Notes under the pieces: model-generated
What the model was told of the DNA's origin: nothing
Seen by the model: only the letters and a program-made list of their open reading frames with translations
Databases searched by the model: none
Program-made: the position numbers and the translations under genes
Origin: an uncultured Gemmatimonadales bacterium
GTDB lineage: Bacteria; Gemmatimonadota; Gemmatimonadetes; Gemmatimonadales; GWC2-71-9
Reading direction: 5' to 3'
Length of the DNA stretch: 64,000 nucleotides
NCBI GenBank assembly: GCA_963716055.1
Contig: CAVQSR010000001.1
Span: forward strand, 1,350,791-1,414,790
Shown: positions 1-40,913 of the stretch, piece after piece
Position numbering within the stretch: position 1 is the first letter of the stretch
Layout of the letters: each line of letters begins with the position of its first letter

Positions 1-3000
1 CCGATTCACTCCCGCTCCACGACATACTGCGGCCAAACGCCGCCTGCGCGATATCTGTTCCAGAGTATCCCACGTCGACAGCTGCTTCAGCTTTCACAGC
101 CCAGTCGGCCGGATTTGGGTAACCAGCCAGCGGCGCGAGATGCAGCTCCTTCAAGGTGTCCATCTGGAGCAACTCTCTGAGGAGTGTCGCATCATTGCCT
201 ACCAAGTGTTGGACGATTTCTGAGGGAAATAGGTCCCCGGGCAGAGTCGCCATGAGTCGCCGCCGATCATCGACGCTCAACCGCTCTAGCGCCGCACTAA
301 TCGTTTCCTCACAGCGCCAGAGCTCGGAATTCTGATGTAACCGCTCGGCCAGCCACTCCATCGCTAGCGATGGGTCTGCCTGGAGAATCTCACGGAGAGA
401 CCACTCGTCACATGGAACGCGCAGGACTGCCCGGTGCCACACCTCGCGCAGAGACTCTCGTACGGTGCCTTTGGGATCAGCAGTCCATTCACCAATCGCC
501 GCTGCCGAAGCGATGAACGGGTCCCGGTGGGATAGGAGCCGCCGGACGACTGCTTCGGGAAGCTCCAAGCGTAGACAGAGACTCTCGATCCACTGCGCGC
601 CGCCATCCAGGCGCTCCAGTGCAAGGTCGATCAGCTCTTCTGGCGTTGCCTCCTCCTGTAGCACCGTGATCGCCGCCATAAGACGCTGTCGACCATCATC
701 AAGGCAGAGTAGGGCAAGCTGGTGACTCGTCGAAGCCTTATCTCGAAGTAATCGCCGTAGAAAGGGCTGCAGGAGGTCGGACGATGCGTTTCCCGCAAGG
801 AACGCCTCAAGCCAGGGTGCGCAGTCGTCCGTTTGATCCGCAATCACCTGGCACACATGCGGGGTCCACCGCGGCCACGGGTTGCTAATGAGGCGACCTT
901 CTTCCTCATGGCGAAGCATCTCGGGAACTGAGAGACCGGGGCCGGCCTGTGCCCATCGTGTCGCCAGTGCTGTCGCTCGCTCTCGCTGTTCCTCTTCCTC
1001 GGCTCGCCAGTCCCCCCGCTCCCGGTGAGGGAAGAGCGTCTCGAAGTCAGCGTCGACCGAGGCGGACAAGTCGACGCCGAATCGATCCGCGACTGAGGCT
1101 ACCCAGTGAAGAAACCCTGAGTGACCTTTGCCTGCATCCGCAAGATCGCGCAACATCTCGCCGGCAAAGGAGGCGGCTTCAGCGGCAAGGGGCTCCGGTA
1201 GCGGTCGAGACGGACGCGGATGATAGGCCCACGCAGACACAACGTCTTGCACGGGTTTCCAGTGCTGTACCGGCTCGTTGGCAAGTCGCCCGCGAACTGC
1301 TGGCCACATTGCACGAATCGCTCGCGCCTCCTCAAGAGACACGAACCCGAATGAGAGCGTGAGATTTCGGCCACTGCCCGGTTCCGGCTCGGTGCGCTCG
1401 AATTCCGGGGACAGTGCCAATACGAGCGCATGCAGCCCGACTGCCGGGTTCCGACCTTCGTCCAACCAGTGCTGCGCAGTCTTCAGCAGCTGGGTTCGCC
1501 GTTCGAGCACGGACGGCGTGCCGGGCACTGCCGCATGGATCCAGTCGGCAACCTGTCGCAGCGCATGATCAGGATGCGAATGCAGCGCGCGGTTGTCTCC
1601 AATGGCACCGCCCAGCAGTATCGGGAGCGCGACCTCAGGCGCCGTCTCCAGCATGGTCCGACCGATTCGTCCGACCCATTCCGGATGCTCCGTCGCAATC
1701 CAAGTCGTCTCACGTCGGCCGAGTCGGGAATACAAAGCCCACAGGTCATGGGAGCCGCAACGCTCAATAAGGCTCCGCACCAAGTCCTCTGAAACCCGGG
1801 CGCCTCGATGTTGAGCCCGGACAACCGTAAGTGTCAGTTCCTCCACGTTCGGTGCGACCGAAAGCAGGGGTTCGATCGGCAGGGACGTAGGACCAGCGAA
1901 GAACACGTCCCGCACCAGTACATCGCGCAATGCTGGCGGTCGCACAGTGAGTCGTTCTCGATCGACCTCAACCAATACGCCGCCGGCCGCAAGGTGCGAG
2001 ACCCGTTCGCGAAGTCTGGAGGCAGGCTCCTCCAAGTAATCCGCCACGGCCTGCATGGCCATCCCTGCATCGCCGCCCGCTGCAAACACGGCGAGCAACG
2101 TCTTCGTGTCACCGCCAATAAGTCGGTTGAACACAAAGGCGATCTCTTGCGCCAGAGCATCGCCTTGTGCTACAGCCCTCACGTCTCCTCGCAAGCACAG
2201 ATTGGAAAGTGTGACGGCTAGGCCCGGCTTCCCTTCAGCCTGATTCACAATCTCTTGGATCAGTCCGCGCGGGCCGCCGATGCCCGCGCCTCTCACAACT
2301 GCCGCAATCTCATCCTGAGACAATAGGTCCAACCCACGCACTGATGCGGATGGTACATCCAAAGCTCGCGCGACGTCATCGCGGCTCCCGGGCCACGAGT
2401 CGGCGATGATACGGAACTCACCCCCCATCTCGGATCGCAGGCGACGCAGCTGCGGCAGGCGGTCGAGTTGTAGATGCGCGTTCTCGACAACGAGTGCAGA
2501 AGGATTCTCGCGACGAATACCCGCGGCTATCTCACCCAAGTCGGGCGTATGAGCAAAGAGGCCTCCCTGCTCCTTGGCGAAGTGGTAAAGCAGGAATGTC
2601 TTCCCCACGCCCGGTTGTCCAACGACCAGGAGATCGCCCGGAGTGTGCACCAGCCATAGCATGTCCTGCGAGCGCCCAACCAACACATCACCGATCACGG
2701 ACCGCCCGGGCTGCGGCATCACAGACAGTGGCGGAGGCCCCCCGACGATCCCGAGCAACTCTTGGCACCACTCGGGACGGCGATACAGAAGGTCTGTGAA
2801 CGCAGGGCGATCGTGAATCTGTGTTAGTGTGAAGCCTAGATCGCGCGCCACCTTCTCGAGGGCACTACGCCGCCGGGCAGAAACCGATTGTGAGGTAGCG
2901 AATACGACTGCTCTACGTGTTCCACCACGGGCTAGGTACGACTGGAGATTCCGACGCAGATTGCGACCGAGATCGGCGCCGATCGTCGTGACCAGCGGAA

Positions 3001-3181
3001 ACGGAAGTCCTGCGCCATCGGCAATGGCGCCGTCCATACCCGCGTCGTCGCCACCGCGGATCGGCACGAGGGTGGGGTGTACAGCACCGAGGAGGTCGGC
3101 TGCACAGCGTTCGAACAGCTCGGGGTCGAGCTTGCCGCCTAGTCCTGCTTCGATGTCACGATAAAACGAGTCGCGTATCAT
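1..3181 (-). CDS. Large P-loop NTPase (AAA/STAND-like) with Mrr-like N-terminal domain and long alpha-helical C-terminal region; 3' end runs off the window (>=1060 aa seen)
   Basis: Absent from the ORF track because it has no in-window stop. My translation of the minus strand from ATG 3181..3179 stays open to position 2. All listed minus ORFs in 1-3180 have starts congruent to 0 mod 3; this frame is 1 mod 3. Begins MIRDSFYRDIEAGLGG. Walker A VVGQPGVGKTFLL (Lys codon 2602..2600). Walker-B-like ALVVENAH about 40 aa later. N-term LFERCAADLLG..IRGGDDAGMDG resembles the start of Mrr_cat. Confidence 0.75.
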   Translation of the reverse strand, partial: MIRDSFYRDIEAGLGGKLDPELFERCAADLLGAVHPTLVPIRGGDDAGMDGAIADGAGLPFPLVTTIGADLGRNLRRNLQSYLARGGTRRAVVFATSQSVSARRRSALEKVARDLGFTLTQIHDRPAFTDLLYRRPEWCQELLGIVGGPPPLSVMPQPGRSVIGDVLVGRSQDMLWLVHTPGDLLVVGQPGVGKTFLLYHFAKEQGGLFAHTPDLGEIAAGIRRENPSALVVENAHLQLDRLPQLRRLRSEMGGEFRIIADSWPGSRDDVARALDVPSASVRGLDLLSQDEIAAVVRGAGIGGPRGLIQEIVNQAEGKPGLAVTLSNLCLRGDVRAVAQGDALAQEIAFVFNRLIGGDTKTLLAVFAAGGDAGMAMQAVADYLEEPASRLRERVSHLAAGGVLVEVDRERLTVRPPALRDVLVRDVFFAGPTSLPIEPLLSVAPNVEELTLTVVRAQHRGARVSEDLVRSLIERCGSHDLWALYSRLGRRETTWIATEHPEWVGRIGRTMLETAPEVALPILLGGAIGDNRALHSHPDHALRQVADWIHAAVPGTPSVLERRTQLLKTAQHWLDEGRNPAVGLHALVLALSPEFERTEPEPGSGRNLTLSFGFVSLEEARAIRAMWPAVRGRLANEPVQHWKPVQDVVSAWAYHPRPSRPLPEPLAAEAASFAGEMLRDLADAGKGHSGFLHWVASVADRFGVDLSASVDADFETLFPHRERGDWRAEEEEQRERATALATRWAQAGPGLSVPEMLRHEEEGRLISNPWPRWTPHVCQVIADQTDDCAPWLEAFLAGNASSDLLQPFLRRLLRDKASTSHQLALLCLDDGRQRLMAAITVLQEEATPEELIDLALERLDGGAQWIESLCLRLELPEAVVRRLLSHRDPFIASAAAIGEWTADPKGTVRESLREVWHRAVLRVPCDEWSLREILQADPSLAMEWLAERLHQNSELWRCEETISAALERLSVDDRRRLMATLPGDLFPSEIVQHLVGNDATLLRELLQMDTLKELHLAPLAGYPNPADWAVKAEAAVDVGYSGTDIAQAAFGRSMSWSGSES

Positions 3182-3407
3182 TCTTCAGAGCCTACCACCA
3201 ATGTCGGCCGCTTGGAAACAGCACCGCGACGACGCTAGTAACACTAGCAGAGCCGCACCCTTAGTCTGCGAGGTACTGGATTACGACGGCTCCGTCACCA
3301 GATCCACGATCATTTTGACCCGGGATTCGATCTCCTGGCGAGTAGGCTTCACCGTCTGAAAAACGAAGTTGATCGTCTTGGCCTCGCTGCTCCCTCACGC
3401 GGTCGCG

Positions 3408-3572
3408 CTAATGCGTATTGAAGTCGTTGTATGGTGCCTTGAGCGCTAACGCGACGTAGATCTCGAGAAGGGCTTGCCGGCATGGATCCGGCTCTTCTAC
3501 AAAACGGATCTTCATCTTTCGGATGCGCTTCCTAGCGAGGCGGAACGCAGTGACGAAGCCGTCATCCGTCAT
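3408..3572 (-). CDS. Small hypothetical ORF (54 aa), start overlaps the stop of the upstream hydrolase gene
   Basis: Below the ORF-track size cutoff. ATG 3572..3570 lies in GATGACGGATGA and overlaps the hydrolase stop (3564..3562). Reads MTDDGFVTAFRLARKRIRKMKIRFVEEPDPCRQALLEIYVALALKAPYNDFNTH*. No recognisable domain. Confidence 0.2.
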   Translation of the reverse strand: MTDDGFVTAFRLARKRIRKMKIRFVEEPDPCRQALLEIYVALALKAPYNDFNTH

Positions 3573-5691
3573 CAAGTGGGCGCGTGAACCGTCCGCTCTG
3601 TAGCTCGCTCACAACAGTCGAGATCCCAGCTAGCATAAGAATTATTGTGAACACAAGTAGTAGGTAGTTGAAGAGCCAGTCGGACGGCAGCCCTTCAAGG
3701 AGCAGCCACGAAAGACCGAAGACCATCCACACAATCATCGCCATGAAAAAGAGAGTGACTCGCATCCTACCGCGCGGAAGAACCCCGTTGCCTCCAGGCC
3801 ACTGGTTGGCCAGGACCCGATCCTGCTCCGCGCGGACCCAGAATCGCCATAAGCTGCGCAGGAGGCCGCAACTGGCCACGTGGATGAGGGCGATCCCCCC
3901 CAGAAGTACCGCGACCCGGGTAGCCTTTGACGCGACAGCGGGTAGCCAGGCTGGCAGTTTGAGTGGTTGCGGCACCAATTCTGAATATTTGAACCATACA
4001 GAGGCGCCCACAGTTAGCCAGGCAATCCCGACAGCGCGGCGCGCCAGCCGCAGCCAACCGACCCGCCAGGCCGCGCGCGCATCCACAGCAGGCGGGACCG
4101 GTGAAAGCTCGTCCCTCCAGGGGCTCATCGCTGTCTCCGCGCACTCCCTTAGGACGCGCAGAACGAAGCCATCGAGATTGTCCCAATAGGCAGAGTGGTC
4201 GGCAAGCCGCGAGCCAAGGTTCCAGATCCGGACCGATTCCGGTACGCCTGGTTCGGTGGTTCTCATGGGACCGTTCGGCACGGGGTCATGCGACGCGTAG
4301 AGGTCGATCCACCGATGCAAGCCCAGGGGTCTTCGTACTTGCTCGACGAGGCTCTTCATGCGCTGAGAGAGGATCCGGTATGAGAATATCCCTAGCACTA
4401 CGAATGCTGCGGCGAGGAATGTTACGCGATTTAAAGGCGCGTGCTTGAAGGGCACCGAACGGCTAAGGGATCCCCATGCGACGAGTGTTCCGAGAAGGAA
4501 CCCCGAGAGTAGCAAGAAGGATAGCAATGCGCTCAGGCGTTGCAACCACGGCTTCGAGACCAGCAAGGCAGCCGACCGTGTCCCCAGGTTGGGCCACAGC
4601 TTCAAAGCTAGGTAGATAATCAATCCAACGAATACTGCGACAGCCGAAGGAGCAAGCGCGACTCCGACGGCCTTCAGAATGTCCAGGAAGGTGATCCTTT
4701 GAGCTATGACATCTACAAACAGCCAGAGAGACAATCCGATGGCGATGACGATGGCTATGGTAGCAAGCAATGTGGGGTTCTTCTCTACCTTGGCAAATCT
4801 GGCTGACAAAACTTTCAGACTGACGAGCAGCGCCGTGCCAGCGCCGAATGTCACTAGGCTGTCTGGAACGACACGTGGCCCCAGGGGATCTTGGCGTGTC
4901 GCCTCACTAGTTTCTGCCGCTGTCCCGAGGATCCCACCCAGCGCGTCCATCGCGACGGCCGCGCCTTGCGAATGGGCGACGACGACCGTGGTCTCGCAGC
5001 ACTGCTTCAGTCGTGCGAGTCCCCCAAGGACCCGCGTGCGAATCAGCGCGGCCCGGATCGGACTCTTGACGAATGCGAGGCTATCGCCGACGATCGCCGC
5101 GAACCCTCCCCTCGCAGCGAGGATCCGGGTCCGCAGTTGCGGGATAGGGAGCAGTCCAGCGACTAGTCCGATTGCCAAAATGGCGATGTACAAGGGCGCG
5201 AACAGCAGAGCTATGGGGAGCCAGGCGTAGGTTTTGACTACCGAGACGATTTTATTGCTGACCTTGCCTGACTCGGCTGCGGTCCAGTACCTCTGCGCAA
5301 TGCGGAGGGCGATGGACCATGGCAGCGCCGTCACGCTCCAGGAAACAAGCTCTCGGTAGCTCGGAGCCAGGAAGGCGTCCGCCCACCACCCCTCGCAAAG
5401 CAGCCAACTCTCCTGACTTTCGCCCGCTCGTAGCCGAACAACCGCTTCCGCGCGACCCTCGTCATCTGGACCAGCCTGCAACGCGGTCGCGCTAACCCTG
5501 TAGTTCGTCGCTCGGCCGATTGTCTGCAATAGTACGTCGCCCCACCGAACGAGGGTTTCCCCGGACCGCTGTGAACCGATCCCATGTACGAGGAGCACAC
5601 CGAGCTGGTATTCCTTCGGCGCTTGGAGGGAAACACCAGAGAGGTCGTGGCCCCCCTCACTGTGATCGAGCCGACGGGTTGGTGTCATCAC
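3562..5691 (-). CDS. Membrane-embedded alpha/beta-hydrolase (lipase/esterase-like serine hydrolase), 709 aa
   Basis: ORF-track protein. Oxyanion-type LLVHGIGS (res 33-40), nucleophile elbow VVVAHSQGA (Ser241), then DLYASHDPV (Asp469) and LADHSAYW (His499). Hydrophobic helices at about 155-182, 307-441 (four) and 550-697 (about four). GGGAGA lies 5 nt upstream of the ATG. Confidence 0.75.
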   Translation of the reverse strand: MMTPTRRLDHSEGGHDLSGVSLQAPKEYQLGVLLVHGIGSQRSGETLVRWGDVLLQTIGRATNYRVSATALQAGPDDEGRAEAVVRLRAGESQESWLLCEGWWADAFLAPSYRELVSWSVTALPWSIALRIAQRYWTAAESGKVSNKIVSVVKTYAWLPIALLFAPLYIAILAIGLVAGLLPIPQLRTRILAARGGFAAIVGDSLAFVKSPIRAALIRTRVLGGLARLKQCCETTVVVAHSQGAAVAMDALGGILGTAAETSEATRQDPLGPRVVPDSLVTFGAGTALLVSLKVLSARFAKVEKNPTLLATIAIVIAIGLSLWLFVDVIAQRITFLDILKAVGVALAPSAVAVFVGLIIYLALKLWPNLGTRSAALLVSKPWLQRLSALLSFLLLSGFLLGTLVAWGSLSRSVPFKHAPLNRVTFLAAAFVVLGIFSYRILSQRMKSLVEQVRRPLGLHRWIDLYASHDPVPNGPMRTTEPGVPESVRIWNLGSRLADHSAYWDNLDGFVLRVLRECAETAMSPWRDELSPVPPAVDARAAWRVGWLRLARRAVGIAWLTVGASVWFKYSELVPQPLKLPAWLPAVASKATRVAVLLGGIALIHVASCGLLRSLWRFWVRAEQDRVLANQWPGGNGVLPRGRMRVTLFFMAMIVWMVFGLSWLLLEGLPSDWLFNYLLLVFTIILMLAGISTVVSELQSGRFTRPLDDG

Positions 5692-5807
5692 AGTCTCCCA
5701 GTGAACCGTTTCAGGTGGTGTGACTCATTCAACTAGTTATTTGACGTCCGAATGACTGCGCCGAGCGCATCAGCATCTGCGTGCCATGGACCGCCGGTAT
5801 GGCCCGT

Positions 5808-6068
5808 TTACTCTGGTCGTTCGTCTGGTGCTTCTGTAGCCTCGGCGGACAGGTCCTCGCGGAGGAGTCTGATGATCCCGGGGACGTGCCGGCGAGCTGG
5901 CGCTGTCCGATTTCTCTCCCAGTTGTAGACCGTTGTCTTGTCCACGGCAAGTCGCTCGGCCACCTCGCGCTGCAGTAACCCCAATTCGAGCCGCCGCCAG
6001 TGGAGCCGGTCCCCAAGGGTCTTGATCTCCTTCGGATAGCCTACCGGCAGCGGCTTCCGTCCCTTCAA
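5808..6068 (-). CDS. XRE-family helix-turn-helix transcriptional regulator (about 86 aa from TTG start)
   Basis: The C-terminal 86 aa of ORF 5808..6188 read KEIKTLGDRLHWRRLELGLLQREVAERLAVDKTTVYNWERNRTAP, a classic HTH_3/XRE pattern. The track's N-terminal extension is R/G-rich and overlaps the comM fragment. In-frame TTG at 6068..6066 chosen as start (uncertain). Confidence 0.6.
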   Translation of the reverse strand: MKGRKPLPVGYPKEIKTLGDRLHWRRLELGLLQREVAERLAVDKTTVYNWERNRTAPARRHVPGIIRLLREDLSAEATEAPDERPE

Positions 6069-6097
6069 AGTGGCATGGCAAAAAGGCAACGCAGGAA

Positions 6098-6619
6098 TGT
6101 CCCTACGGCTACGCGGGCGACCCCCACCACGACTGCACCTGCGGCCCCCCGGACGTGCAGCGTTACCTCGCGCGCGTCTCGGGGCCATTGCTCGACCGCA
6201 TCGACATCCACCTGGAGGTGCCGGCTGTGAAGTACCGCGAGCTGTCCGAGCGCGCGGCCGGGGAGCCGAGTGCCGCGATCCGCGCGCGGGTGGACCGGGC
6301 GCGGACCACGCAGCGCGCGCGGTTCGCCGGGCGGCCCGGCGTGTTCGCCAACGCGCACATGGGGCCGCGCGACATCCGGGCCCACTGCCGCGTGAGCGAC
6401 GGCGCGGAGGCGTTGCTGCGGACGGCGATCACCCGGCTTGGCCTTTCAGCGCGAGCGTATCACCGCATTCTCAAGATCGCCCGCACGATCGCGGATCTGG
6501 ACGGCGCCGCGGGCCTGGAGCCGAAGCATGTGAGCGAGGCGATTCAATACCGCAGTCTGGACCGGCGGGGCGGAATGACACCGGGTCCCGTCGTTCCCAT
6601 TTCGACACACGGGCGGTAA
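6098..6619 (+). pseudogene. comM: 3' fragment (C-terminal about 173 aa) of comM/yifB Mg-chelatase-like ATPase, 5'-truncated
   Basis: In-frame reading from 6098 gives CPYGYAGDPHHDCTCGPPDVQRYLARVSGPLLDRIDIHLEVP...SARAYHRILKIARTIADLDG...HVSEAIQYRSLDR. This is the conserved Cys cluster and C-terminal domain of the ComM/YifB family. The approximately 330 N-terminal residues (Lon-like and AAA+ parts) are missing, and upstream sequence in that frame (WHGKKATQE) is unrelated. Confidence 0.8.
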
Positions 6620-6671: not shown

Positions 6672-6829
6672 GATTTACGGAATTCACCACAGCCGGCACG
6701 GTCATTGCTTACTCCCGGTCCGGAGGATGGTCCTCCCACAACGACAAGAGCACACCCGGGGCGACCCGGGGTCGCAAAGCCAGGGGTCTCTCCGAGACAG
6801 CCCAGCTGCCGAAAGTGAGATGAGCGCGC

Positions 6830-7186
6830 ATGAACAGCTTCGATTCAGGGCCCGCGGCCGTACGATCGGCCGCCCGCCAATCCCAGCAGCTGGTGACCTA
6901 CCTCCTCAACGGACCGGATGACCCCGCGGCGTGGGCCGAGCTCGCGCGCCTCGCGGACGGCATCCGGGCCGAAGCCGCCGCGCAGTCGCTCAGTGAGCTG
7001 GAGGGGGTCGCCGCGAGCATCGCGGCCATGGCGGACGTCGCCGTGCTCGACGCGCACACCACGATGGAGCTCGACGCCGCGGCGGACCGACTCCTCGTCC
7101 TCACGGACCGGGCCTCGCAGTCCCTGGAGGCGCTGACGCTGCCGGAGGAAGACGCTGTCGCGGGGCCCTACTCGGATGCCGGGTAG
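6830..7186 (+). CDS. Hypothetical protein (118 aa), Ala/Leu-rich helical
   Basis: ORF-track ORF in an otherwise empty interval. No recognisable motif, and coding status not verified. Confidence 0.35.
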   Translation: MNSFDSGPAAVRSAARQSQQLVTYLLNGPDDPAAWAELARLADGIRAEAAAQSLSELEGVAASIAAMADVAVLDAHTTMELDAAADRLLVLTDRASQSLEALTLPEEDAVAGPYSDAG

Positions 7187-7214: not shown

Positions 7215-8270
7215 TCAGGCGCGGCCGACCTCGGGCCTACCGCTCAGGTCGGGATGGTGATCTCGCAGCCACGCGACCGAGTCCGATAGCGTCACGCGGC
7301 CGTCGCGGCTGCGATAGTCGAGCTCCGCCGCGGCGTAGCGCGACGTCACGGCCCAGTGGTGCCGCGCCATCTCGATCACGACCGGGTCGGGCAGAGCGGA
7401 CGTCGGTCGCCCGACGAGCCGGCTGAGCCGGTCCGCCAGCGCCGCGAGCGCCCACGCGAGGTGGTAGGGCAGCACGCGCCGCGGCGCCGGCAGGCCCGCT
7501 ACGTCTCCCGCCAGGGCGAAGAACTCCTCCACGCCGCACACCGTGCCCGGCAGGTGGTACACCGGCCGGGCCGCGGGCCGCTCCATGATGCGCACGAGCG
7601 CCGCGGCCACGTCGCGCACGTCGGCGAAGTGCATCCCGCCGCGAATCACGAACGGGAGCCGGCCCCGCAGGTAGCGCACCAGGTGTCCCGTGGAGCGGAA
7701 GCGGTGGTCACCCGGTCCGAGCAGCATCGGTGGGCGCACGATCACGAGGTCCACGCCCAGCTCCTCCGCCAACGCCCGCGCCCCGCGCTCCGCCAGGATC
7801 TTCGAGTGGTAATAGGGCCAGCGGGCGACGCGCTCCTCGCAATAGGGCGCGTCCTCGTCCGCCCACTCGGCGGCGCCGCGAAAGCAGCCGACGGTCCCGG
7901 TGCTCGACACGACCACCAGCCGGCAGCGATGGACCGCGGCGAGGCGCACCGCCGCGCGCGTGCCCGCGACGTTGGTGTGGTACATGTCGCCCGGCTCGCG
8001 CCGGCTGTGGCGGACGACGGCCGCCAGGTGGAAGATGCCGCCGAGGCCGTGCACGCCGGCGTCCGCCGACCACGCCTCGGGTTCCGTGACGGATCCCGCG
8101 AGCACCGTGACCGCGGCGAGTGGTCGCGTCCACTCCATCCGGTGCCAGGCGTCGGGGGAGCGCGCGAGCGCGATCACGCGACGCTGAGGGTCGCCGCGCC
8201 GGAGGGTGAGCAGCAGGTGGCGTCCGAGGAAGCCACCGGCGCCGGTGACGAGATACGGACCGTCGGTCAG
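7215..8270 (-). CDS. NAD-dependent epimerase/dehydratase-family SDR (candidate acyl/alkyl-DHAP reductase)
   Basis: C-terminal 351 aa of ORF 7215..9689: YLVTGAGGFLGRHL (Rossmann GxxGxxG), YYHSKILAE (YxxxK). The upstream part of that ORF is R/P/A junk antisense-overlapping the next gene. Start is uncertain: only CTG 8270 sits next to the upstream stop, with no ATG/GTG/TTG nearby. Confidence 0.75.
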   Translation of the reverse strand: MTDGPYLVTGAGGFLGRHLLLTLRRGDPQRRVIALARSPDAWHRMEWTRPLAAVTVLAGSVTEPEAWSADAGVHGLGGIFHLAAVVRHSRREPGDMYHTNVAGTRAAVRLAAVHRCRLVVVSSTGTVGCFRGAAEWADEDAPYCEERVARWPYYHSKILAERGARALAEELGVDLVIVRPPMLLGPGDHRFRSTGHLVRYLRGRLPFVIRGGMHFADVRDVAAALVRIMERPAARPVYHLPGTVCGVEEFFALAGDVAGLPAPRRVLPYHLAWALAALADRLSRLVGRPTSALPDPVVIEMARHHWAVTSRYAAAELDYRSRDGRVTLSDSVAWLRDHHPDLSGRPEVGRA

Positions 8271-10630
8271 GCCACGGGCTCCGGGGCGCGCCCGGGATCG
8301 CCCACGGCATGGCCGGGCGCGGCGCGCAGCGCCCCGAGCCGCTGCTCGAGCGGCTCGTCCCCCGCACCCGTCTCGAACAGGTGGGCGAACTGGTTCCCGA
8401 GCGAGCGCGCGATCTCCGGATCGAGGTCGGGGGGCAGACTCAACGCGCTTTCGAGCACCCGCCCGCCGCGCTGCTCGATCGCGCGGCGGAGCCATGCCGC
8501 ATCGACGCCGGGGACCGGATGCCGGTCGAGGAAGCCTCGCAGGTGGTACGTCGTCGTGACGGTGGCGCGCGCCAGGCGCGCGAGCACCTCCTGGCTCGCG
8601 GCGTAGACGTCGTCCGCTGGGTCGAGCGGAATCGGAGCGCCGCAGGCGATGTGGATCCGTCCCAGATCGATCCGGCCGAGGAACACGCGCACCGTCCAGG
8701 CGAGCAGCGCGCCGAGGCGCATCTTCGGCTTCGGCGCCCCGGCCAGCTCGCGGGCGAAGCTCGCTTCTTCGGGCACGCGCTCGTAGGACAGCGCCACCGG
8801 GAGCAGCGCGCAGGGCTCGCCCGTGGCTTGCACCGAGCGCAGCAGGCCGCGCTTGGGCGGCAGGAACCGGCGCGAGCGGCTCCGCTGTCCCTCGATGAAC
8901 ACCTCGAGCGCCCGGCGCTCGCGCACGAGCGCGCGCACCCGGGCCGTCACGGCCGGGTCCTCGCGCCCCTCCCCCCGGGTCACGTAGAACGCCTGCAGGC
9001 GGGTGGCGAGCCACCCCACGACGGGAATACGCGCGAAGTCGACGGCCGCGGCCACGTAGGGAATGGGGACGCCGAGGTCGCGCCGCGCGAAGAAGAGATA
9101 GGAGCACAGGATGAAATCGAGATAGCTGCGGTGCGACGGCACGATCACGAGCGGGCAGTCCGGGGGCACGGCCCGGCGGGCTGCTTCGAACGACGGCAGG
9201 TCCACCGTGATTCGCTCGCAGCAGCGGCGCAGCACCTTCGTCACGAGCCAGGCCGCGGCGCGGAGCAGGCCGGTCCCGTCGGGTTGCCGTCGGGCCCAGC
9301 GCAGGTCGCCGCCGTGGCCCGGATGGCGCCGGCCGGCGAGGCACCACTGCGTGTCGTCGCGCCGCAGAAGGTACCGATACACCCCGCGGCTCACCGTGGC
9401 GACGTACCCCCCGGGATCGAACCCCGCGTCGAGCGGTGCCGCCGAGCGGAAGTCGAAGGTATGCCGGGTGAAGTAGCGAAACACGCGGTTGGCGTGGGTG
9501 AGGCGCGCCCGCAGCTGGGCGGCCGCGCGGCGCGCGCGCGGCGTGCGCATCCCGGCCGCCGCGATGGGCAGCCGGTGGTGCATCGCGTCCGCGACGCCGA
9601 AGGCCAATCCCGGCGGCCCGAGGTAGCGCATGGCGGGCGGCCGCTCGACGGGATGCACGGCGAAGAAATCCTGGATGCGCGTCCAGCATTCCCGCACGGT
9701 GGCGCTGCGCGCGACGCCCGCCACCGCGTGCTGAATCAACGGCTCGCTCCCGGCGGGAGGCGCTCCGTTACAGGCGAGCAGGATGCGGGTGGCCACTTCG
9801 TCCACCGGGATCAGGTCGAGGCGCGCGTCGGGGTCGCCCACCACGGCGCGCAGGTGCCCCGATCCCAGCAGCATCACGAAGGTGGCGAACCCGGCCGCGC
9901 TGTCGATCCACCCGGGAAAGGGATAGCGCCAGCTCGCCGAAATGATGCTGGGGCGCACGATCGCGAGCGGCACCCCGCCGCTCCGCGCCACCAGCAGATG
10001 CTCGGCCAGGGACTTGGTGAACGTGTAGGTGTTCGGGTGACCGGAGCGCCGGAACAGCTCGGCGGCGCGGGCGCCGCCGTTCAGGATGTCCCCGTAGAGC
10101 TCCTCGGCGGGCGCCGGGAGCGGCGCGAGCGTTTCGCCGGCGGACGTGTGCGCCCCGGCGGCGGGCGTCACGTACGCGGTCGACACGTACACGAGCCGCT
10201 CGAGTCCGGCGCACGCCCGCGCCAACTCGAGCAGGTTGAGGCTCGCGGCCACGTTCCACCGCGCGGCGTCGGCCAGCGGATGATCGAACTCCACCGAGGC
10301 AGCGGCGTGGAGCGCGTGGGTGGTCGTGCCCGTGATCGCGTCCCGCGCCGCGGGGTCGAGAGCGAGACCCGGGTGCTCGAGGGTGCCCTCGACCACCCGA
10401 ACCAACCGGGTCCAGTCCCGCGGCAGCCCGACGAAGCACGCCGAGGGGGCCACCTCGCGGCGGAACCGCTCGTCGGCGCCGCGCGCACCCTTGCGGCGGA
10501 TCACCACGGTCACCTGGGTGGTCTCGAGCTCGTCGCGCCGGCGCAGTAGCTCCTCGAGCAGCACCTTTCCCAGGAAGCCCGTGACGCCCGTCAGCAGATA
10601 GGCCCGCCCCGCGCCTCCCCCCTCCCGCAT
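8267..10630 (-). CDS. Fusion protein: fatty acyl-CoA reductase (FAR) domain + PlsB/GNPAT-type acyltransferase (DHAPAT-like) domain, 787 aa
   Basis: From internal ATG 10630 (MREGGGAGRAYLLTGVTGFLGKVLLEELL). FAR motifs TGxTGFLGK and NTYTFTKSLAE. C-terminal half has acyltransferase blocks VPSHRSYLDFIL (HxxxxD) and FIEGQRSRSRRFLPPKRG. Confidence 0.85.
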   Translation of the reverse strand: MREGGGAGRAYLLTGVTGFLGKVLLEELLRRRDELETTQVTVVIRRKGARGADERFRREVAPSACFVGLPRDWTRLVRVVEGTLEHPGLALDPAARDAITGTTTHALHAAASVEFDHPLADAARWNVAASLNLLELARACAGLERLVYVSTAYVTPAAGAHTSAGETLAPLPAPAEELYGDILNGGARAAELFRRSGHPNTYTFTKSLAEHLLVARSGGVPLAIVRPSIISASWRYPFPGWIDSAAGFATFVMLLGSGHLRAVVGDPDARLDLIPVDEVATRILLACNGAPPAGSEPLIQHAVAGVARSATVRECWTRIQDFFAVHPVERPPAMRYLGPPGLAFGVADAMHHRLPIAAAGMRTPRARRAAAQLRARLTHANRVFRYFTRHTFDFRSAAPLDAGFDPGGYVATVSRGVYRYLLRRDDTQWCLAGRRHPGHGGDLRWARRQPDGTGLLRAAAWLVTKVLRRCCERITVDLPSFEAARRAVPPDCPLVIVPSHRSYLDFILCSYLFFARRDLGVPIPYVAAAVDFARIPVVGWLATRLQAFYVTRGEGREDPAVTARVRALVRERRALEVFIEGQRSRSRRFLPPKRGLLRSVQATGEPCALLPVALSYERVPEEASFARELAGAPKPKMRLGALLAWTVRVFLGRIDLGRIHIACGAPIPLDPADDVYAASQEVLARLARATVTTTYHLRGFLDRHPVPGVDAAWLRRAIEQRGGRVLESALSLPPDLDPEIARSLGNQFAHLFETGAGDEPLEQRLGALRAAPGHAVGDPGRAPEPVA

Positions 10631-10646
10631 GCGATTCACGGCGCTC

Positions 10647-12462
10647 TCAGGACCGGAGCCGCGCGGCCGGCGGTCCGGCCACCAGCTGATTGCCGGCTCC
10701 GAAGACGTTGGCCGGATCGATCGCCCGCTTGACCTCCGCGGCCCACTCGAGGGCGGCGGGCGACATGATGCGGGGCAGGAACGCACGCCGCAGCTTGCCG
10801 ACGCCGTGGTGGTGCGAGAGCGATCCGCCGGAGTGCAGAATCTCGTCGCGAGCCGACCGCTCGAGTTCGGCGAAGACCGCGCTCGGCTGCTCCACTCCCT
10901 TGTGGTAGAACGCCAGGTAGAAATAGACGCACACGCCCGTCTGGTAGACCTGCGTCACCCGGCAGCTGATGAAAGGTGTACCGGGCAGGCCGCGCGCCGC
11001 GTGCTCGGCGGCGATCCGCCGCTTCACGTTGTCGCACAACGACAATGCCTGGCTCCACGGCACCGACGTCTCGAACGACTCGCCCAGGATGTAATGCCGC
11101 ATGACGAAGTCGCGGATGTAGGCGATGCCGAAGGTCAGCTGGTACCCGCGGCGCCCGTTCTCCGCGCCCGCGCCCATGCCGCCGTGGCGCCGCGCGAGGC
11201 GGCTCACGGCGCGCCGCTCGGTCCGGACCTCGTCGGCGGCCGCCTTCGAAGACCAGCGTGCAGGCGACCATGCGGTCCGGATCGAAGCCGCGCAGCCGCG
11301 TGACGAAGAACTTCTCGGCCTGCCGCTTGAGCGCCGCCAGGCCCTCGGCCGGGCTTGAGCGTCATGCTCAGCTGGAACTGGAGGTTGTCCACCAGCCGCA
11401 CGCTGGCGGGCGGCGTCGCCTCCCGCGTGAGATCGTACAGAAAGCCGACGCCCGCCTCGAAGGACGGGAAGATGAGCGAGTCGTAGCGCGTGACCTCGGG
11501 CAGCGGGAAGATCTTCACCACCGCCCGGGTGATGATGCCGAGGGTGCCCTCGGAGCCGAAGATCCAGCGCCGCGCGTCGACGCCGACCGACTCGCGCGGC
11601 GCGACCGCGGGTCGCGACACCGGGCCGCGCGCCGTGACCACGTCGACGTCCAGCACCAGGTCCTCGATGTTGCCGTAGCGGTTCTTCTTCATGCCGCTGC
11701 AGTGGGTCGCGATCCAGCCGCCCAGCGTCGAGAACTCGACGCTGTCGGGCTCGTGGCCCAGGGTGAAGCCGTGGGCCCCGAGCTGCTCCTCGATGTGGCG
11801 CCCCACGGCGCCCGCCTCGATGCAGGCCATGAGGTTCGTCGGGTCGATCCACAGGATCCGGTTCAGCCGTTCGCATGTCCACCGACACGATCGTCCGCTC
11901 CTCGTCGCTCGGGCAGCGGAGCGCGTCGGTGACGTTCGTGCCGCCGCCGTAGGGCACGAGGCAGACGTCGTGGCGCGCCGCCGCCTCCACCAGCGCGACG
12001 ACGTCGTCCTCGGTGCGGGGGTACACCACGAGATCGGGCAGCCGTTCGAGGCGCCCGTACTTGATGAGCGTACATCTCCTCCAGCGTGTGGCCGTGGCCG
12101 TGGCGCAGGCGGATCGCGGCGTCGGTGGTGACGGCGTCCGCGGTCAGGAAGGTCCGCAGCTCCGCCACGAACAGCGGGTGCGCGCGCGGCGCGGGCACGT
12201 CCGGGGGATACGCGGAGTCGTGCGTGTCGCGGGGATCGAGCGCGACCCCGAGGACGCGGCTGGTCCACGGGAGCAGATCGGGCAATTCGGCGCCGCTCAA
12301 GGGGTAGCGGGAGCCCGTCAGCGTGACGTGCCCGTTGGGCAGCACCGTGAATGCCGAGTCGCGAAAGCCCCACACGTCGAGGCTTTCCTCGTCGCCGGCG
12401 TGGTGGGGCGGATCGCCCGGCACGATGCGGTCATCGGCGTCGAGCGCGAAGCGGGGGGCCAT
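10647..12462 (-). pseudogene. Alkyldihydroxyacetonephosphate synthase (AGPS, FAD-linked oxidase) interrupted by four frameshifts
   Basis: Homology runs through four track ORFs in three frames. 12462->~12066: WGFRDSAF..GHTLEEMY. ~12066->~11872: IKYGRLERLPDLVVYPRTEDDVV..PYGGGTNV. ~11870->~11350: LNRILWIDPTNLMACIEAG..GWIATHCSGMKKNRYGNIEDL. ~11350->~11240: EGLAALKRQAEKFFVTRLRGFDPDRMVACTLVFEG. ~11240->10647: AADEVR..GYQLTFGIAYIRDF..HHHGVGK. Length is 1816 nt, not a multiple of 3. Confidence 0.8.
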
Positions 12463-12664
12463 GGAACGCTCCGGGTAGCGGCGCGGTAACGATACAGGCA
12501 GGGGGCGGGGCAGGCCAGCGCGGCGCGCGGAGGCAGGGATTGCCGAAGAACCGCCGAAAGGCGGCTATCCGGGACGCGCAAAGGTGTGCCGACATCTCCG
12601 TTTCCGGACGAGTCCGCTCTGTCCGTCGCAGACCGCCTCCGACCGCCATCTTTTCGACCGCGTC

Positions 12665-13702
12665 TCAAAACCCCGGCAGTGCCACCATCCCCACCGGCTC
12701 CCCCGCGTTCATCGCCGGCGTGGGGACCACGTACATCATGACGCCGCCGATCGGTGCCCGCAGCACCGCCAGAGTGTCGCCGAAGAAGTCCGTGACGGCG
12801 CCCAGCGTCGCCCCCGCCGCGACGGCCTGACCCTCGACGACCTGGGGATACCACAGGCCGGTGACCGGGCTGCGGACGACCTCGGTGCGCGCGAACTCCA
12901 CGGCAGCGGGCAGCGGGTCGGGATCGCCCGGCAGCATGCGCAGATACCGCAGCAGGCGAAACACCCCGCGCAGGTTGTGCTGGACCATGTCTTCGTCCGC
13001 CAGGCCCAGGAATCCCGCCTCGCTCGTGATGGCTGGCGTGCCGCGCAGGTGCGCGGTGTTCTGGGTGTACACCCCGATGCGCAAATCCGGCGGGCGTAGC
13101 GTGTCGATCACGATGCGGGTGTGGCCCCAGGCGAGCGCCAGCTCGCGCGCCAGTGAATCGGCGCGCGCATCGAGTCCGAGCCGGGCGGCGTAGGCGTAGG
13201 GGCGCAGCATCTCGTTGCCATCCCCCGAGTGCATGTCCACCAGATAATCGGCCCGGTCGATGATCGCGGTCGTGATCGCCTGCGCGATGCGCTCGGAGAC
13301 GGTACCGTCGGCGCGGCCCGGATACATCCGGTTCAGGTTCTTCCCGTCGATCGGGCTGTAATAGACCGTCCGCTTGAGAAAGGACGGCAGGTTGGCCACG
13401 TGCACCATGAGCACGGTGCCGGAGAGCGCCGCCGGATCGAGCTGCGCCCGGGCGCGCTGGAGTGCCACGATCGGAGCGACCTCGGCACCGTGCGTGCCCG
13501 CGATCAGCGCGAGCGTGGGCCCGGGCCGCGCGCCCCGGATCACGGTGATGGGGATGCGCGTGCCGGAATCGGCGCCGGCCGGCACGACGAGATACCCTGA
13601 GACTTTTTCTCCCGCGCGCGCCGTGACCGGGCCGACGGTGAGCGGCGCGGGCTGCTGCAGCGTCATGGCGAGCGTGAGGGCGGTCAGCGTGAGCACGGGC
13701 AT
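12665..13702 (-). CDS. Succinylglutamate desuccinylase/aspartoacylase (AstE/AspA, M14-like) family protein, secreted
   Basis: Start reset to ATG 13702, preceded by AGGAGA. Signal-like MPVLTLTALTLAMTLQ. Family-typical GTHGAEVAP, NLNRMYPG and DMHSGD motifs. Confidence 0.8.
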   Translation of the reverse strand: MPVLTLTALTLAMTLQQPAPLTVGPVTARAGEKVSGYLVVPAGADSGTRIPITVIRGARPGPTLALIAGTHGAEVAPIVALQRARAQLDPAALSGTVLMVHVANLPSFLKRTVYYSPIDGKNLNRMYPGRADGTVSERIAQAITTAIIDRADYLVDMHSGDGNEMLRPYAYAARLGLDARADSLARELALAWGHTRIVIDTLRPPDLRIGVYTQNTAHLRGTPAITSEAGFLGLADEDMVQHNLRGVFRLLRYLRMLPGDPDPLPAAVEFARTEVVRSPVTGLWYPQVVEGQAVAAGATLGAVTDFFGDTLAVLRAPIGGVMMYVVPTPAMNAGEPVGMVALPGF

Positions 13703-13933
13703 TCTCCTGAGCGGGAAGGAAGCCGCGGCCAATCTACGCCGGCGCCGCGGGCGCGCGAGCGCCGCGCCTCGTCCATCATCCTCACGACTGTCACCGACAT
13801 CGTGGGGTTCCTGAGCTTCCTCGGCTTGGCGACGGCCGCGGCGGGCGTGTTGTGACCGGCCGGCCGCGTTTGCGCCGGGCACGATCGCGGCCTATGATTC
13901 GCCCAACCCCCTACTCGTTTCCCCGGAGGCCGA

Positions 13934-15277: not shown

Positions 15278-18200
15278 TCAGTTGTTTTGCCCCCCGTTGT
15301 TGATCCAGGCGCGCACGATCTTGAGCTGGGTGGCCGTCAACTGGGGCGACGGCGCCGTGGGCATGTTGCTGCCGCATGGGGCCGGCCAGTTGATCTTCTG
15401 ATAGACGAGGCTGGTGGCTGCACTCCCCGCGACCACCAGCGTACGACCGGGGCAGGAACCGGTGCCGCTCGACGCCACGCCCACGATGTTGTTGGGGTTG
15501 CGCTGAAAGCCGTGGCATCCGGCGCAGCCGCTGGTGGACCCTACCACTGCGTTGGCATCTCCGGACCAGGTGTAGATGGCCGAAGCCGTGAAGGTGGCGC
15601 TCGTGGCGCCGGACGCCGAGGCGCTCAGCGTATTCGCCATCGTGCCGTCCGCCGCATCGGCTGACGTTCCCCCCAGGGTCCAGCTCGTGACGGTCGCGAT
15701 GCCGCTCGCATTCGTGGTCTGCGAGCCCCCGGTAACGCTCCCGCCGCCCGCGGTTGGGGTGAAGGTGACCGTCGCGCCCAGGACGGGATTGAGGAACGCG
15801 TCGCGCACCAGCGCTGACGGGCCGACCGCGACCACGGTCCCCACACGCGCCGTCTGGCCGCTGCCACCGTTCACTGCGACTGTCGCCGCCGCGGCGGCGG
15901 TGACCGTCACGCCCGCCGTCTGACTGATGTCGCCCACGCTCGTCGCCGTGCCCCGAATGGTCTTCGCCTGGGCCAGCGTCGAGTTGAAGGTCGAGCTGAA
16001 CTGTCCGGTCGCGTTCGTCGTGCCGGACGCGGGGCTGAACGCGCAGCTCGAGCCCACCGCGCAGGACACGCTCACCGCCTGGCCGGCGATCGGATTGCTG
16101 AACCCGTCCCGTACCGTCACGGTGATCACCGAGGCCGTGTTACCGCCCGTGGTGCACGAGCTGCTGCAGGCGGCGATCGAGTTGTCGCTGGCCGCCACGA
16201 GCGAATTGCTGAGGCTCACCGCTCCGGGGTTCACGACCACGGACCCGGTCGGTGTGATCGCCACGCTGCCGTTGATCGTGGCGCTGATCGTCTTGGTCTG
16301 CGCCGCGGTCGAGCTGAGGCGTCCCGCGTTGAACACGCCGCCCGCGTCCGTCGTGCCCGACGTGCCCGTGGCCGTGTTGGCCGAGCCCGACGCCGACCAG
16401 GTCACGCCCGCGCCGCTGATCGGGTTCCCGAACGCGTCCCGCACGGTGATCGTCACAGTCGCCTGCGTGCCGCCACCCGTCGTGCAGCCCGACGCGCAAG
16501 CGGTGATCGGGCCCGTCGTGGCGATGGCCGACACGGAGCCGCTCGGTGGGCCCGCGGTGCCCGTCGCGGCGAACCCCACCGGACTGCCGGTCAGCCCGGT
16601 CGCGCTCGCCTGCAACGCGTTGGGGCCCGCGCCCGTGCCCAGGGTCCAGCTGCCGACGGCGGCGATGCCGCCCGGGCCCGAAGTCGCGTTGCCGCCCGCG
16701 AGCGAGCCGCCGCCACCCGTCACCGCGAACGTCACCCCGTGGCCCTGCACGGGGTTGTTGAACGCGTCGCGTACCAGGACCGACGGCGCGACGGGCACCG
16801 CCGTGTTGACGGTCGTCGTCTGGTTGTTGCCCCCGTTGAGCGACATCTGGGTCGCGGGCCCCGCCGTGGCGCTCGCCGTGAACGTGACCGGGCTCCCCGT
16901 GAGCGCCGCGGTCGCCTGGAGCGCGTTGTTCGCGGTGCCCGCCGCCGTGCCGAGGCGCCAGCTGCCGACGGTGGCGCGGCCGTTCCCGTCCGCCGTCGGG
17001 GTCGCCGCGGTGACCACGCCGCCGCCGGCCGTCACGGCGAACGTCACGACGCTACCTCCGCGCGGGTTGCCGAACTGGTCACGCACGATCACCGCCGGGG
17101 CGACGGCGACGGTGGTGTTCACGGTGGCCGTCTGGTTGTTCCCCACGTCCAGCGCCATCTGGGTGGCGGTGCCCGCGGTCGCGGTGGCCGTGAACTGCAC
17201 GGGGGACCCGGCCAGGCCGCCGACCGACGCGGTGGCGGTTTGTGTCCCGGCGCCGGTGCCGAGCGTGCGGGTGGCCGCCGCGATGCCGCTCGCGTTGGTG
17301 GTGGACGCCGCCGGAGACACCGACCCGCCGCCGCCGGTCACCGTCCACGACACCGAGATCCCCGGGACCGGATTTGCCGCGTTGTCGGTGACGAGCACCG
17401 TGTAGGCGACGGGCAGCGTCGCGCCCACCGTGTCGGTCTGCGCGTTGCCGCCCGCGAGGGCGATGTTCGCAGCCGAGCCCGAGATTCCGGTGGCCGCGAA
17501 GGTGAGGGGCGAGCCGGCGAGGCCCGGGGCAGTGGCGGTGAGCGAGTTGGGTCCGGGCGCGGGGCCGAGGGTCCAGGATCCGATCACCGCGAGTCCGTCC
17601 GTGCCCGACACCGGGGCGGCGCCCGTGACGCTGCCGCCGCCGGACGCGACGGCGTAGCTGACCGTGATGCCCGCCACGGGGTTGTTGAACTGGTCGCCGA
17701 CGAGGACGGCGGGAGCCACGGGCAGGGTGCTGCCCGCCGTGGCGCTCTGGTTATCGCCCGCCGCCTTGCTGATCTGGGTGGCGGGGCCCGCCGTGCCCGT
17801 GGCGGTGAACGTCACGGGTGAGCCCGCGAGCCCCGTCGCCGTGGCCGTCAGCGTGTTCGCGCCGGCGCCGGTGCCGAGCCGCCAGCTCCCCACGGCGGCC
17901 ACGCCGTTGGTTCCCGTCGTCGCCGTCCCGCCGGTGAGCGACCCGCCGCCCGACGCGATGGCGAAGGTGACCCCGACGTTCGCTACGGCGTTGTTGAATT
18001 GATCGCGCACGAGGACCGCGGGGGCCACCGCGACGGTGCCGTTGACGGGCGCGGTCTGGTTGTTGCCCGCGCTCACGGTGATCTGACTCGCGTTGCCGGG
18101 CGCGGCGCTCGCGGTGAAGGTGACCGGGCTGCCGGTGAGACCGGCGGCCGTCGCCTGGAGCGTGTTGTTGTTGGTGCCGGCGGCTGTGCCGAGCGTCCAG

Positions 18201-40560: not shown

Positions 40561-40913
40561 ACTACGTGCTCGTGGGGATCCTGGGGGTGGTGACGGGCGT
40601 GCTGTCGGGGCTGTTCGGCATCGGCGGCGGAGTGGTGATCGTGCCCGCGCTGGTGCTGCTGGTGCGGCTCGACCAGCACCTCGCGACGGGCACGTCGCTC
40701 GCGGCGTTGCTGCTGCCGGTAGGTCTGATGGGGGTGCTCGAGTATCACCGGCGGGGGCAGGTCAATTTCGCGTACGCGATCCTGCTCGCGCTCGGGCTGC
40801 TGCTGGGCGCGTGGCTCGGCGCCAAGCTGGCGGGCGACGTGTCGGGGCTGGCGTTGCGGCGGGGACTGGGGGCGTTGCTGCTGCTGGTCTCGGTGAAGCT
40901 GCTCGTGGCCTAG
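40557..40913 (+). CDS. Short TauE/SafE (TSUP)-family membrane protein (118 aa, half-size)
   Basis: GVLSGLFGIGGGVVIVPALV motif with four predicted helices. ATGA overlap with the upstream gene. Confidence 0.6.
   Translation: MNYVLVGILGVVTGVLSGLFGIGGGVVIVPALVLLVRLDQHLATGTSLAALLLPVGLMGVLEYHRRGQVNFAYAILLALGLLLGAWLGAKLAGDVSGLALRRGLGALLLLVSVKLLVA

Follow-up and report, generated by a model that had tools for sequence, protein, structure and literature searches.

Does a member of the Gemmatimonadota carry the enzymes with which eukaryotic peroxisomes begin the synthesis of 1-O-alkyl glycerolipids, and can it use them? The question is raised by a minus-strand locus (positions 7215-12462) in a 64,000-nucleotide stretch of contig CAVQSR010000001.1 from an uncultured Gemmatimonadales bacterium (assembly GCA_963716055.1); this whole stretch is called the window below. 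In order, on one strand and with tight spacing, the locus encodes a homologue of alkyl-dihydroxyacetone phosphate (DHAP) synthase (AGPS), a fusion of a fatty acyl-CoA reductase (FAR) domain with an acyltransferase domain (FARAT), and an extended short-chain dehydrogenase/reductase (SDR). We consider it likely, at a probability of roughly 80%, that this locus represents, in the Gemmatimonadota, the orthologue of operon MXAN_1676-1675-1674 of Myxococcus xanthus and hence a bacterial counterpart of the peroxisomal initiation of 1-O-alkyl glycerolipid synthesis.

The three enzymes and their counterparts

On sequence grounds, the flavin adenine dinucleotide (FAD) enzyme falls unambiguously into the AGPS clade (EC 2.5.1.26), with the VAO/PCMH-type architecture. 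Once the frame breaks discussed below are repaired, it aligns colinearly with guinea-pig AGPS (4bby) over residues 29-590 at about 50% identity (E = 5.7e-176) and matches Dictyostelium AGPS (2uuu) at 3e-95, whereas D-lactate dehydrogenase, glycolate oxidase and 2-hydroxyglutarate dehydrogenase reach only about 1e-25 or worse. The initial annotation, which had called this gene an alkyl-DHAP synthase homologue, had named membership of a glycolate/lactate oxidase clade as the outcome that would overturn its call; by score the enzyme falls to AGPS, which matches 150 orders of magnitude better, and the NCBIfam GlcD matches lie far under their cut-offs. The catalytic residues are kept in the repaired translation only, namely, the HHH loop (615-617) and the equivalents of Tyr578 and Arg419 (guinea-pig numbering), and the segments SLSHHHGVG, CVYFYL, and PASVRLVDN align with guinea-pig motifs. 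In the gene as recorded, the Pfam matches to FAD_binding_4 and FAD-oxidase_C are scattered over open reading frame (ORF) fragments in different frames.

The fusion protein is equally well defined. In searches against the Protein Data Bank, its N-terminal half matches the FAR structure 7eoz (7e-26) and its C-terminal half the GPAT-type structure 9vuq and GPAT1 (8e4y), while in NCBIfam only the PlsB catalytic core is matched (6e-28), far under the PlsB cut-off. Pfam, NCBIfam, and structure matches thus agree with the single FAR-acyltransferase polypeptide in FARAT order that had been proposed at the outset. In an alignment of 24 FARAT sequences, residues G15, G18, G21, Y202, and K206 of the FAR domain and H500, D505, E580, G581, R583, and S584 of the acyltransferase domain are invariant; the window protein retains all invariant columns, including those of the Rossmann motif, YxxxK, HX4D, and the FIEGxRSR block. 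Among the candidates scored, 762 homologues were found at E <= 1e-10, the closest other than the protein itself being 67% identical. All 120 homologues among the matches listed share the Pfam architecture, and those with a named source come mostly from Gemmatimonadota/Gemmatimonadales.

The third protein carries the Pfam domains Epimerase (6e-26), NAD_binding_4, and 3Beta_HSD, a Rossmann motif GAGGFLG, and a YxxxK motif that reads YYHSK. Its best NCBIfam matches, HpnA, SdmB, and OleD, are extended SDRs that act on lipid ketones or alcohols. Judged from its sequence, it is the orthologue of MXAN_1674. The suggestion that it acts as an acyl/alkyl-DHAP reductase needs qualifying: it is not a member of the classical-SDR family to which the known acyl/alkyl-DHAP reductases belong (PexRAP/DHRS7B and Ayr1; EC 1.1.1.101) and is thus no homologue of the eukaryotic enzyme, though from its genomic context it may act as 1-alkyl-DHAP ketoreductase.

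The three-gene synteny in relatives, which had been put forward as a check, proved strongly conserved. Scanning of species-representative genomes yielded 79 loci, 42 of which have a full-length match to FAR plus acyltransferase. AGPS lies directly upstream of FARAT at 41 of these 42 loci, and the SDR directly downstream at 26 of the 38 that offer enough sequence. The loci come from Gemmatimonadota, Myxococcota (M. xanthus AM003, our locus L029, Archangium, and Cystobacter), Binatia, Nitrospira, Bacteroidetes, and Spirochaetes. Two side observations concern the organization of the module. At loci L031 and L034, an SDR homologue is found approximately 5 kb upstream instead. At eight spirochaete loci (L044, L046, L047, L049, L051, L054, L055, and L058), AGPS is followed by a protein that matches the FAR half only (about residues 1-530), which suggests that Spirochaetes have split or otherwise organized versions of the module.

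The closest described system is the M. xanthus operon, in which sequence analysis has assigned MXAN_1676 as AGPS, MXAN_1675 as a protein with FAR and GNPAT-like parts, and MXAN_1674 as an NAD-dependent epimerase/dehydratase (PMC9131029, PMC13012113). MXAN_1676 is about 42% identical to human AGPS, and a likeness to the eukaryotic enzymes had already been pointed out in 2006 (PMC9131029). A 2026 study names MXAN_1675 a FARAT and argues that the eukaryotic FARAT was derived from Myxococcota; its authors also searched GTDB for these enzymes and recovered individual genes in several bacterial phyla (PMC13012113). The window shares with M. xanthus the three genes, their order and strand, the fusion architecture, and the overlap of the FARAT stop with the predicted SDR start. 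Identities to the proteins of L029 are 57% for AGPS, 44% for FARAT (residues 8-758), and 45% for the SDR. The differences are the phylum, the putative start codon of the SDR gene (CTG versus GTG or ATG), and the four indels in AGPS. Because the same operon is known from M. xanthus, the module is already-known biology and not the noteworthy compact version that the initial annotation took it for; its pathway assignment was nonetheless reasonable, though it missed both the AGPS frameshifts and the probable CTG start of the SDR.

With the eukaryotic peroxisomal route, which uses either a FARAT (Tetrahymena TtFARAT, Dictyostelium, and Discoba) or separate FAR1 and GNPAT proteins, the locus has in common the order FAR then acyltransferase, the logic of four activities, and, in AGPS, the identity to the mammalian enzyme and the active-site equivalents given above. 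In contrast, the eukaryotic genes are unlinked and their products are targeted to peroxisomes, TtFARAT has 1,140 residues against 787 in the window, and the reductase of eukaryotes (PexRAP/DHRS7B, Ayr1-type) belongs to the classical SDRs, unlike the extended SDR of the epimerase/3beta-HSD/HpnA-like type that is encoded in the window. Other bacterial ether lipid systems are more distant. The ElbD protein of the elbA-E cluster (myxobacteria and Acidobacteria SD4) resembles the window protein in its FAR-like and acyltransferase domains, in neighbouring genes for NAD-dependent epimerases/dehydratases, and in leading to alkyl ether lipids. However, it carries additional acyl-CoA synthetase and acyl carrier protein domains, has an AGPAT-like acyltransferase, and lacks an AGPS partner, whereas the window protein consists of only a FAR and a PlsB/GNPAT-type acyltransferase. 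The plasmalogen synthase PlsA/PlsR of anaerobes and the glycerol ester reductase Ger likewise give bacterial sn-1 ether bonds, but they are unrelated enzymes that convert preformed ester lipids without DHAP or fatty alcohol chemistry, and Pfam revealed nothing resembling them in 7215-12462. A search of those window genes that were scanned yielded neither an elbD-type second pathway nor a CarF/PEDS1 desaturase, so that plasmanyl lipids rather than plasmalogens would be the products.

On this basis, a four-step route can be proposed. Judging from family membership, the FAR domain of FARAT would reduce acyl-CoA to a fatty alcohol, and the acyltransferase domain, for which the conserved linkage is a further indication, would transfer an acyl group from acyl-CoA to DHAP to give 1-acyl-DHAP. 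The flavoenzyme AGPS would then exchange the acyl group for the fatty alcohol, yielding 1-O-alkyl-DHAP. Finally, the translationally coupled extended SDR would reduce the keto group, and the resulting 1-O-alkyl-glycerol 3-phosphate (1-O-alkyl-G3P) would feed ordinary phospholipid synthesis.

Conceivably, the cluster does not serve ether lipids at all: the acyltransferase would acylate G3P, the SDR would be an aldehyde reductase or another lipid reductase, and FARAT and SDR together would supply fatty alcohols or ordinary lysophosphatidate. The acyltransferase domain does fit PlsB and GPAT1 cores equally well, and the SDR is unrelated to reductases of the PexRAP/Ayr1 type. Yet FARAT is almost always linked with a bona fide AGPS, which makes sense only if its products are acyl-DHAP and fatty alcohol. 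Moreover, deleting MXAN_1676 plays a part in the loss of alkyl ether lipids, implicating the orthologous operon in their formation (PMC9131029, PMC13012113), and eukaryotic FARATs of the same architecture have been shown to provide both substrates of AGPS in work cited by PMC13012113. We therefore regard a function outside ether lipid synthesis as improbable.

Several points nevertheless weigh against our assignment of the locus to a working ether lipid route. Disruption of MXAN_1676 alone brings only a minor reduction of ether lipids in M. xanthus, where ElbD provides the main route (PMC9131029), and our literature search found no report linking Gemmatimonadota to AGPS or AGPS-type ether lipids. 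That the acyltransferase uses DHAP is a prediction drawn from families and context, and so is the substrate assigned to the SDR. AGPS-FARAT pairs without an adjacent downstream SDR occur at several loci of Gemmatimonadota and other taxa (L003, L083, L084, L015, L016, L040, L059, and others), so that, of all components of the module, the reductase has the loosest linkage. Finally, the AGPS gene as recorded is untranslatable past about residue 131, and this genome may make no ether lipids.

The AGPS reading frame

The initial annotation was right that three adjacent minus-strand genes are present and right in their domain calls, but the first of them (12462..10647) is not one ORF. It spans 1816 nucleotides, which is not divisible by 3, and its homology to AGPS runs over three frames with four switches. 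Translation from 12462 stops after 199 codons, and a full-length uninterrupted AGPS frame is absent from the record. We located the switches by frame plots of G+C at third codon positions (GC3) together with a seven-state frame hidden Markov model (HMM), and the underlying indels by nucleotide alignment with six relatives. Relative to these six, the window alone carries three 1-nucleotide insertions and one 2-nucleotide deletion, all within 835 bp (Table 1). Removal of the extra base at site 1 gives a protein alignment without a gap, at site 3 the relatives carry one residue more than the window protein, and at site 4 the repaired reading FEGGRR/EVR agrees with relative L052; with all homologues aligned, the repaired AGPS is gap-free at the indel sites. 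With its frame shifted by these four indels, AGPS cannot be produced from the cluster in its recorded form.

The damage is confined to this gene. Neither the frame HMM nor GC3 revealed a further internal frame switch in approximately 58 kb of the window with about 45 other genes, and a Pfam scan of 20 neighbouring genes gave results consistent with intact genes, several of them matched over their full length (e.g., Aldedh 1-460/461 and Hydantoinase_B 1-519/519). Two large ORFs in an island of low G+C content, described below, remain open for 709 and more than 1061 codons. Because the rest of the window is free of frame switches and the neighbours are intact, the frame lesions appear specific to AGPS, and a generalized sequencing error can be rejected on the same findings. 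AGPS is unbroken in every relative examined. A seemingly second frameshifted AGPS, in relative L082, owes its apparent split to a 10-N scaffold gap.

Apart from its indels, the gene shows no trace of decay. Across 175 columns that are otherwise invariant, not a single private substitution is seen in the repaired AGPS, compared with 0 to 14 in relatives, and the corresponding numbers at conserved sites are 0 for FARAT and 1 for the SDR. Because everything else in the three genes looks fully conserved, we believe that the module was functional until very recently.

The account that we favour, by a small majority of our confidence, is that the indels arose as errors of sequencing or assembly where a long-read assembly is locally of low quality, so that AGPS is in reality intact and the module works. 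This would fit the pristine state of the repaired ORF, catalytic residues included, and the likewise pristine FARAT and SDR. It would also fit the nature of the lesions, all of which are clustered indels with no nonsense or missense lesion among them. The source contig measures 2.47 Mb, which suggests long reads. In neutral decay at usual substitution-to-indel ratios, four indels without a single conserved-site substitution would be unlikely (approximately 0.03 to 0.16 by our own estimate). On the other hand, such errors would have to be strictly local, given the absence of further frame switches, and the indel sites lie outside long homopolymers and share no common motif.

Alternatively, AGPS might be a genuine, very recent pseudogene in a lineage that has just lost AGPS-type ether lipid synthesis. 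FARAT and SDR would then be not yet decayed or kept for another use, for instance, the formation of fatty alcohols. The restriction of the frameshifts to the AGPS gene is in line with this, as are signs that the module is loosening in the clade of the window, in which the SDR may start with CTG and, in L003 and L083, is not found beside FARAT. Against it, a signal of relaxed selection is absent from all three genes, three of the four lesions are insertions whereas bacterial decay is usually deletion biased, and AGPS is intact in all relatives, L082 included. A recent loss is thus a tentative explanation, to which we assign appreciably less than even odds. The lack of conserved-site substitutions, the preponderance of insertions, and the probable long-read origin of the contig are the reasons for which we prefer an error in the record over a pseudogene. 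Programmed recoding, in which AGPS would be made through ribosomal frameshifting, is a next to negligible explanation: the four events do agree in their net shift of the frame (+1 nucleotide or -2 nucleotides), but no slippery motif is common to the sites, the events are absent from all six aligned close relatives, AGPS is a single unbroken match at all loci that have it, and we know of no precedent for four consecutive efficient frameshifts.

Table 1. Coordinates of the genes, domains, and sites discussed in the text
Feature	Position	Strand	Description
AGPS homologue	10647..12462	minus	ATG at 12462, TGA at 10649-10647; frame broken four times; repaired product 603-604 aa
Indel site 1	12066..12069	minus	+1 nt near 12067 (GCT-C-ATC); frame shifts after about codon 131; HMM switch 12069/12070
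Indel site 2	11870..11873	minus	+1 nt near 11871 (CGA-A-CGG); HMM switch 11873/11874
Indel site 3	11350..11351	minus	-2 nt after 11351, K/R codon following Lys-Pro lost; HMM switch 11347/11348
Indel site 4	11232..11234	minus	+1 nt at 11233 (CGCCGA-C-GAG); HMM switch 11245/11246
FARAT (FAR plus PlsB/GPAT/GNPAT-type acyltransferase, one polypeptide)	8267..10630	minus	787-aa uninterrupted ORF
FAR domain, residues 13-281	9788..10594	minus	NAD_binding_4 ("male sterility"/FAR) 6.2e-56; Rossmann TGVTGFLGK; catalytic Y202/K206
Acyltransferase domain, residues 487-614	8789..9172	minus	PF01553 1.3e-22; HX4D H500-D505; FIEGQRSRS block
Predicted FARAT-SDR coupling junction	8267..8282	minus	GGAG 8282-8279, 8-nt spacer, CTG 8270-8268, overlapping TGA 8269-8267
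Extended SDR, 351 aa	7215..8270	minus	Pfam Epimerase, NAD_binding_4, 3Beta_HSD

The FARAT-SDR junction

The SDR gene would start with CTG rather than ATG, GTG, or TTG, and this codon overlaps the FARAT stop codon as CTGA. Of the canonical in-frame starts that precede the Rossmann motif, the closest is located 226 nucleotides ahead of the FARAT stop and falls within the coding sequence of FARAT. At the same junction position, most relatives have ATGA, GTGA, or TTGA (GTGA in M. xanthus), with GGAG 8 nucleotides upstream. Four sequences, those of the window, L001, L002, and L081, have CTGA, with the position of the overlap and the GGAG conserved; in a neighbour-joining tree, these four fall in one clade together with L082, L003, and L083. 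L001 offers no canonical start from the in-frame stop upstream as far as the Rossmann motif. The simplest reading would be that the SDR is initiated at CUG through tight translational coupling to FARAT. With GGAG and the NTGA overlap conserved at the junction, the C terminus of FARAT (...EPVA) is conserved as a consequence. A fusion of FARAT to the SDR by -1 ribosomal frameshifting is not supported, since a slippery heptamer is absent, and relatives have a normal start exactly at the overlap.

Surroundings and significance

The window has a G+C content of about 72%, except for a segment of 60% at 1-6100. We delimit the corresponding island, which stands out at 60% G+C from a genome of about 72%, at 1-6619. 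On the minus strand it encodes a P-loop protein of more than 1061 residues that extends past the window edge (2-3184), a 709-residue membrane protein that has an AHSQG motif but is matched in neither Pfam nor PADLOC (3562-5691), and an XRE-type helix-turn-helix protein (5808-6188). Adjoining it on the plus strand (6155-6619) are only the final approximately 150 codons of a comM/yifB Mg-chelatase-like gene, and the segment appears to be a mobile island inserted into comM. No rRNA or tRNA gene was found in the window, and its comparison with plasmids gave no match.

Between island and SDR, a c-di-GMP-I-GGC variant riboswitch (RF03167) is predicted at 6740-6814 on the plus strand, its 59.8 bits being just over the gathering score of 59. 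An ORF of 118 codons without a Pfam match follows 16 nucleotides 3' of it (6830-7186, plus strand) and converges with the 3' end of the SDR gene. In L001, the closest relative with long context, a gene for a B12-binding radical SAM protein (12182-13792) follows two genes after the SDR; the window has no such gene. On the other side of the module, a gene at 15278-19699 (minus strand) encodes a 1473-residue protein with seven Big_1/invasin-like immunoglobulin repeats. The plus-strand ORFs 15927-17405 and 17999-19591 form an antisense shadow of it in the same third-codon phase and are probably not genes. Likewise, an ORF at 40557-40913 (plus strand) matches the TauE/SafE sulfite-exporter profile (237 positions) from position 127 to 237 only and directly abuts the full-length hydantoinase B gene; it is probably the remnant of a truncated gene.

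In conclusion, a documented, eukaryote-like ether lipid module of myxobacteria would extend to the Gemmatimonadota and several other phyla. For this particular genome, caution is in order: AGPS is unreadable as recorded, and metabolic inference needs confirmation at the level of the reads. A more far-reaching proposal would be that Gemmatimonadota make 1-O-alkyl glycerolipids by means of this operon, that one subclade translates the SDR from a conserved CUG by termination-reinitiation, and that the present genome is a natural, very recent AGPS knock-out; we consider it unlikely that all of this holds together. The conserved CTG start of the coupled SDR would in itself be a small case of noncanonical initiation. 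Gemmatimonadota are an abundant soil phylum, and the extended distribution of the module bears on the question of which bacteria in soil give rise to monoalkyl glycerol ethers, as well as on the recent claim that the eukaryotic FARAT came from Myxococcota.

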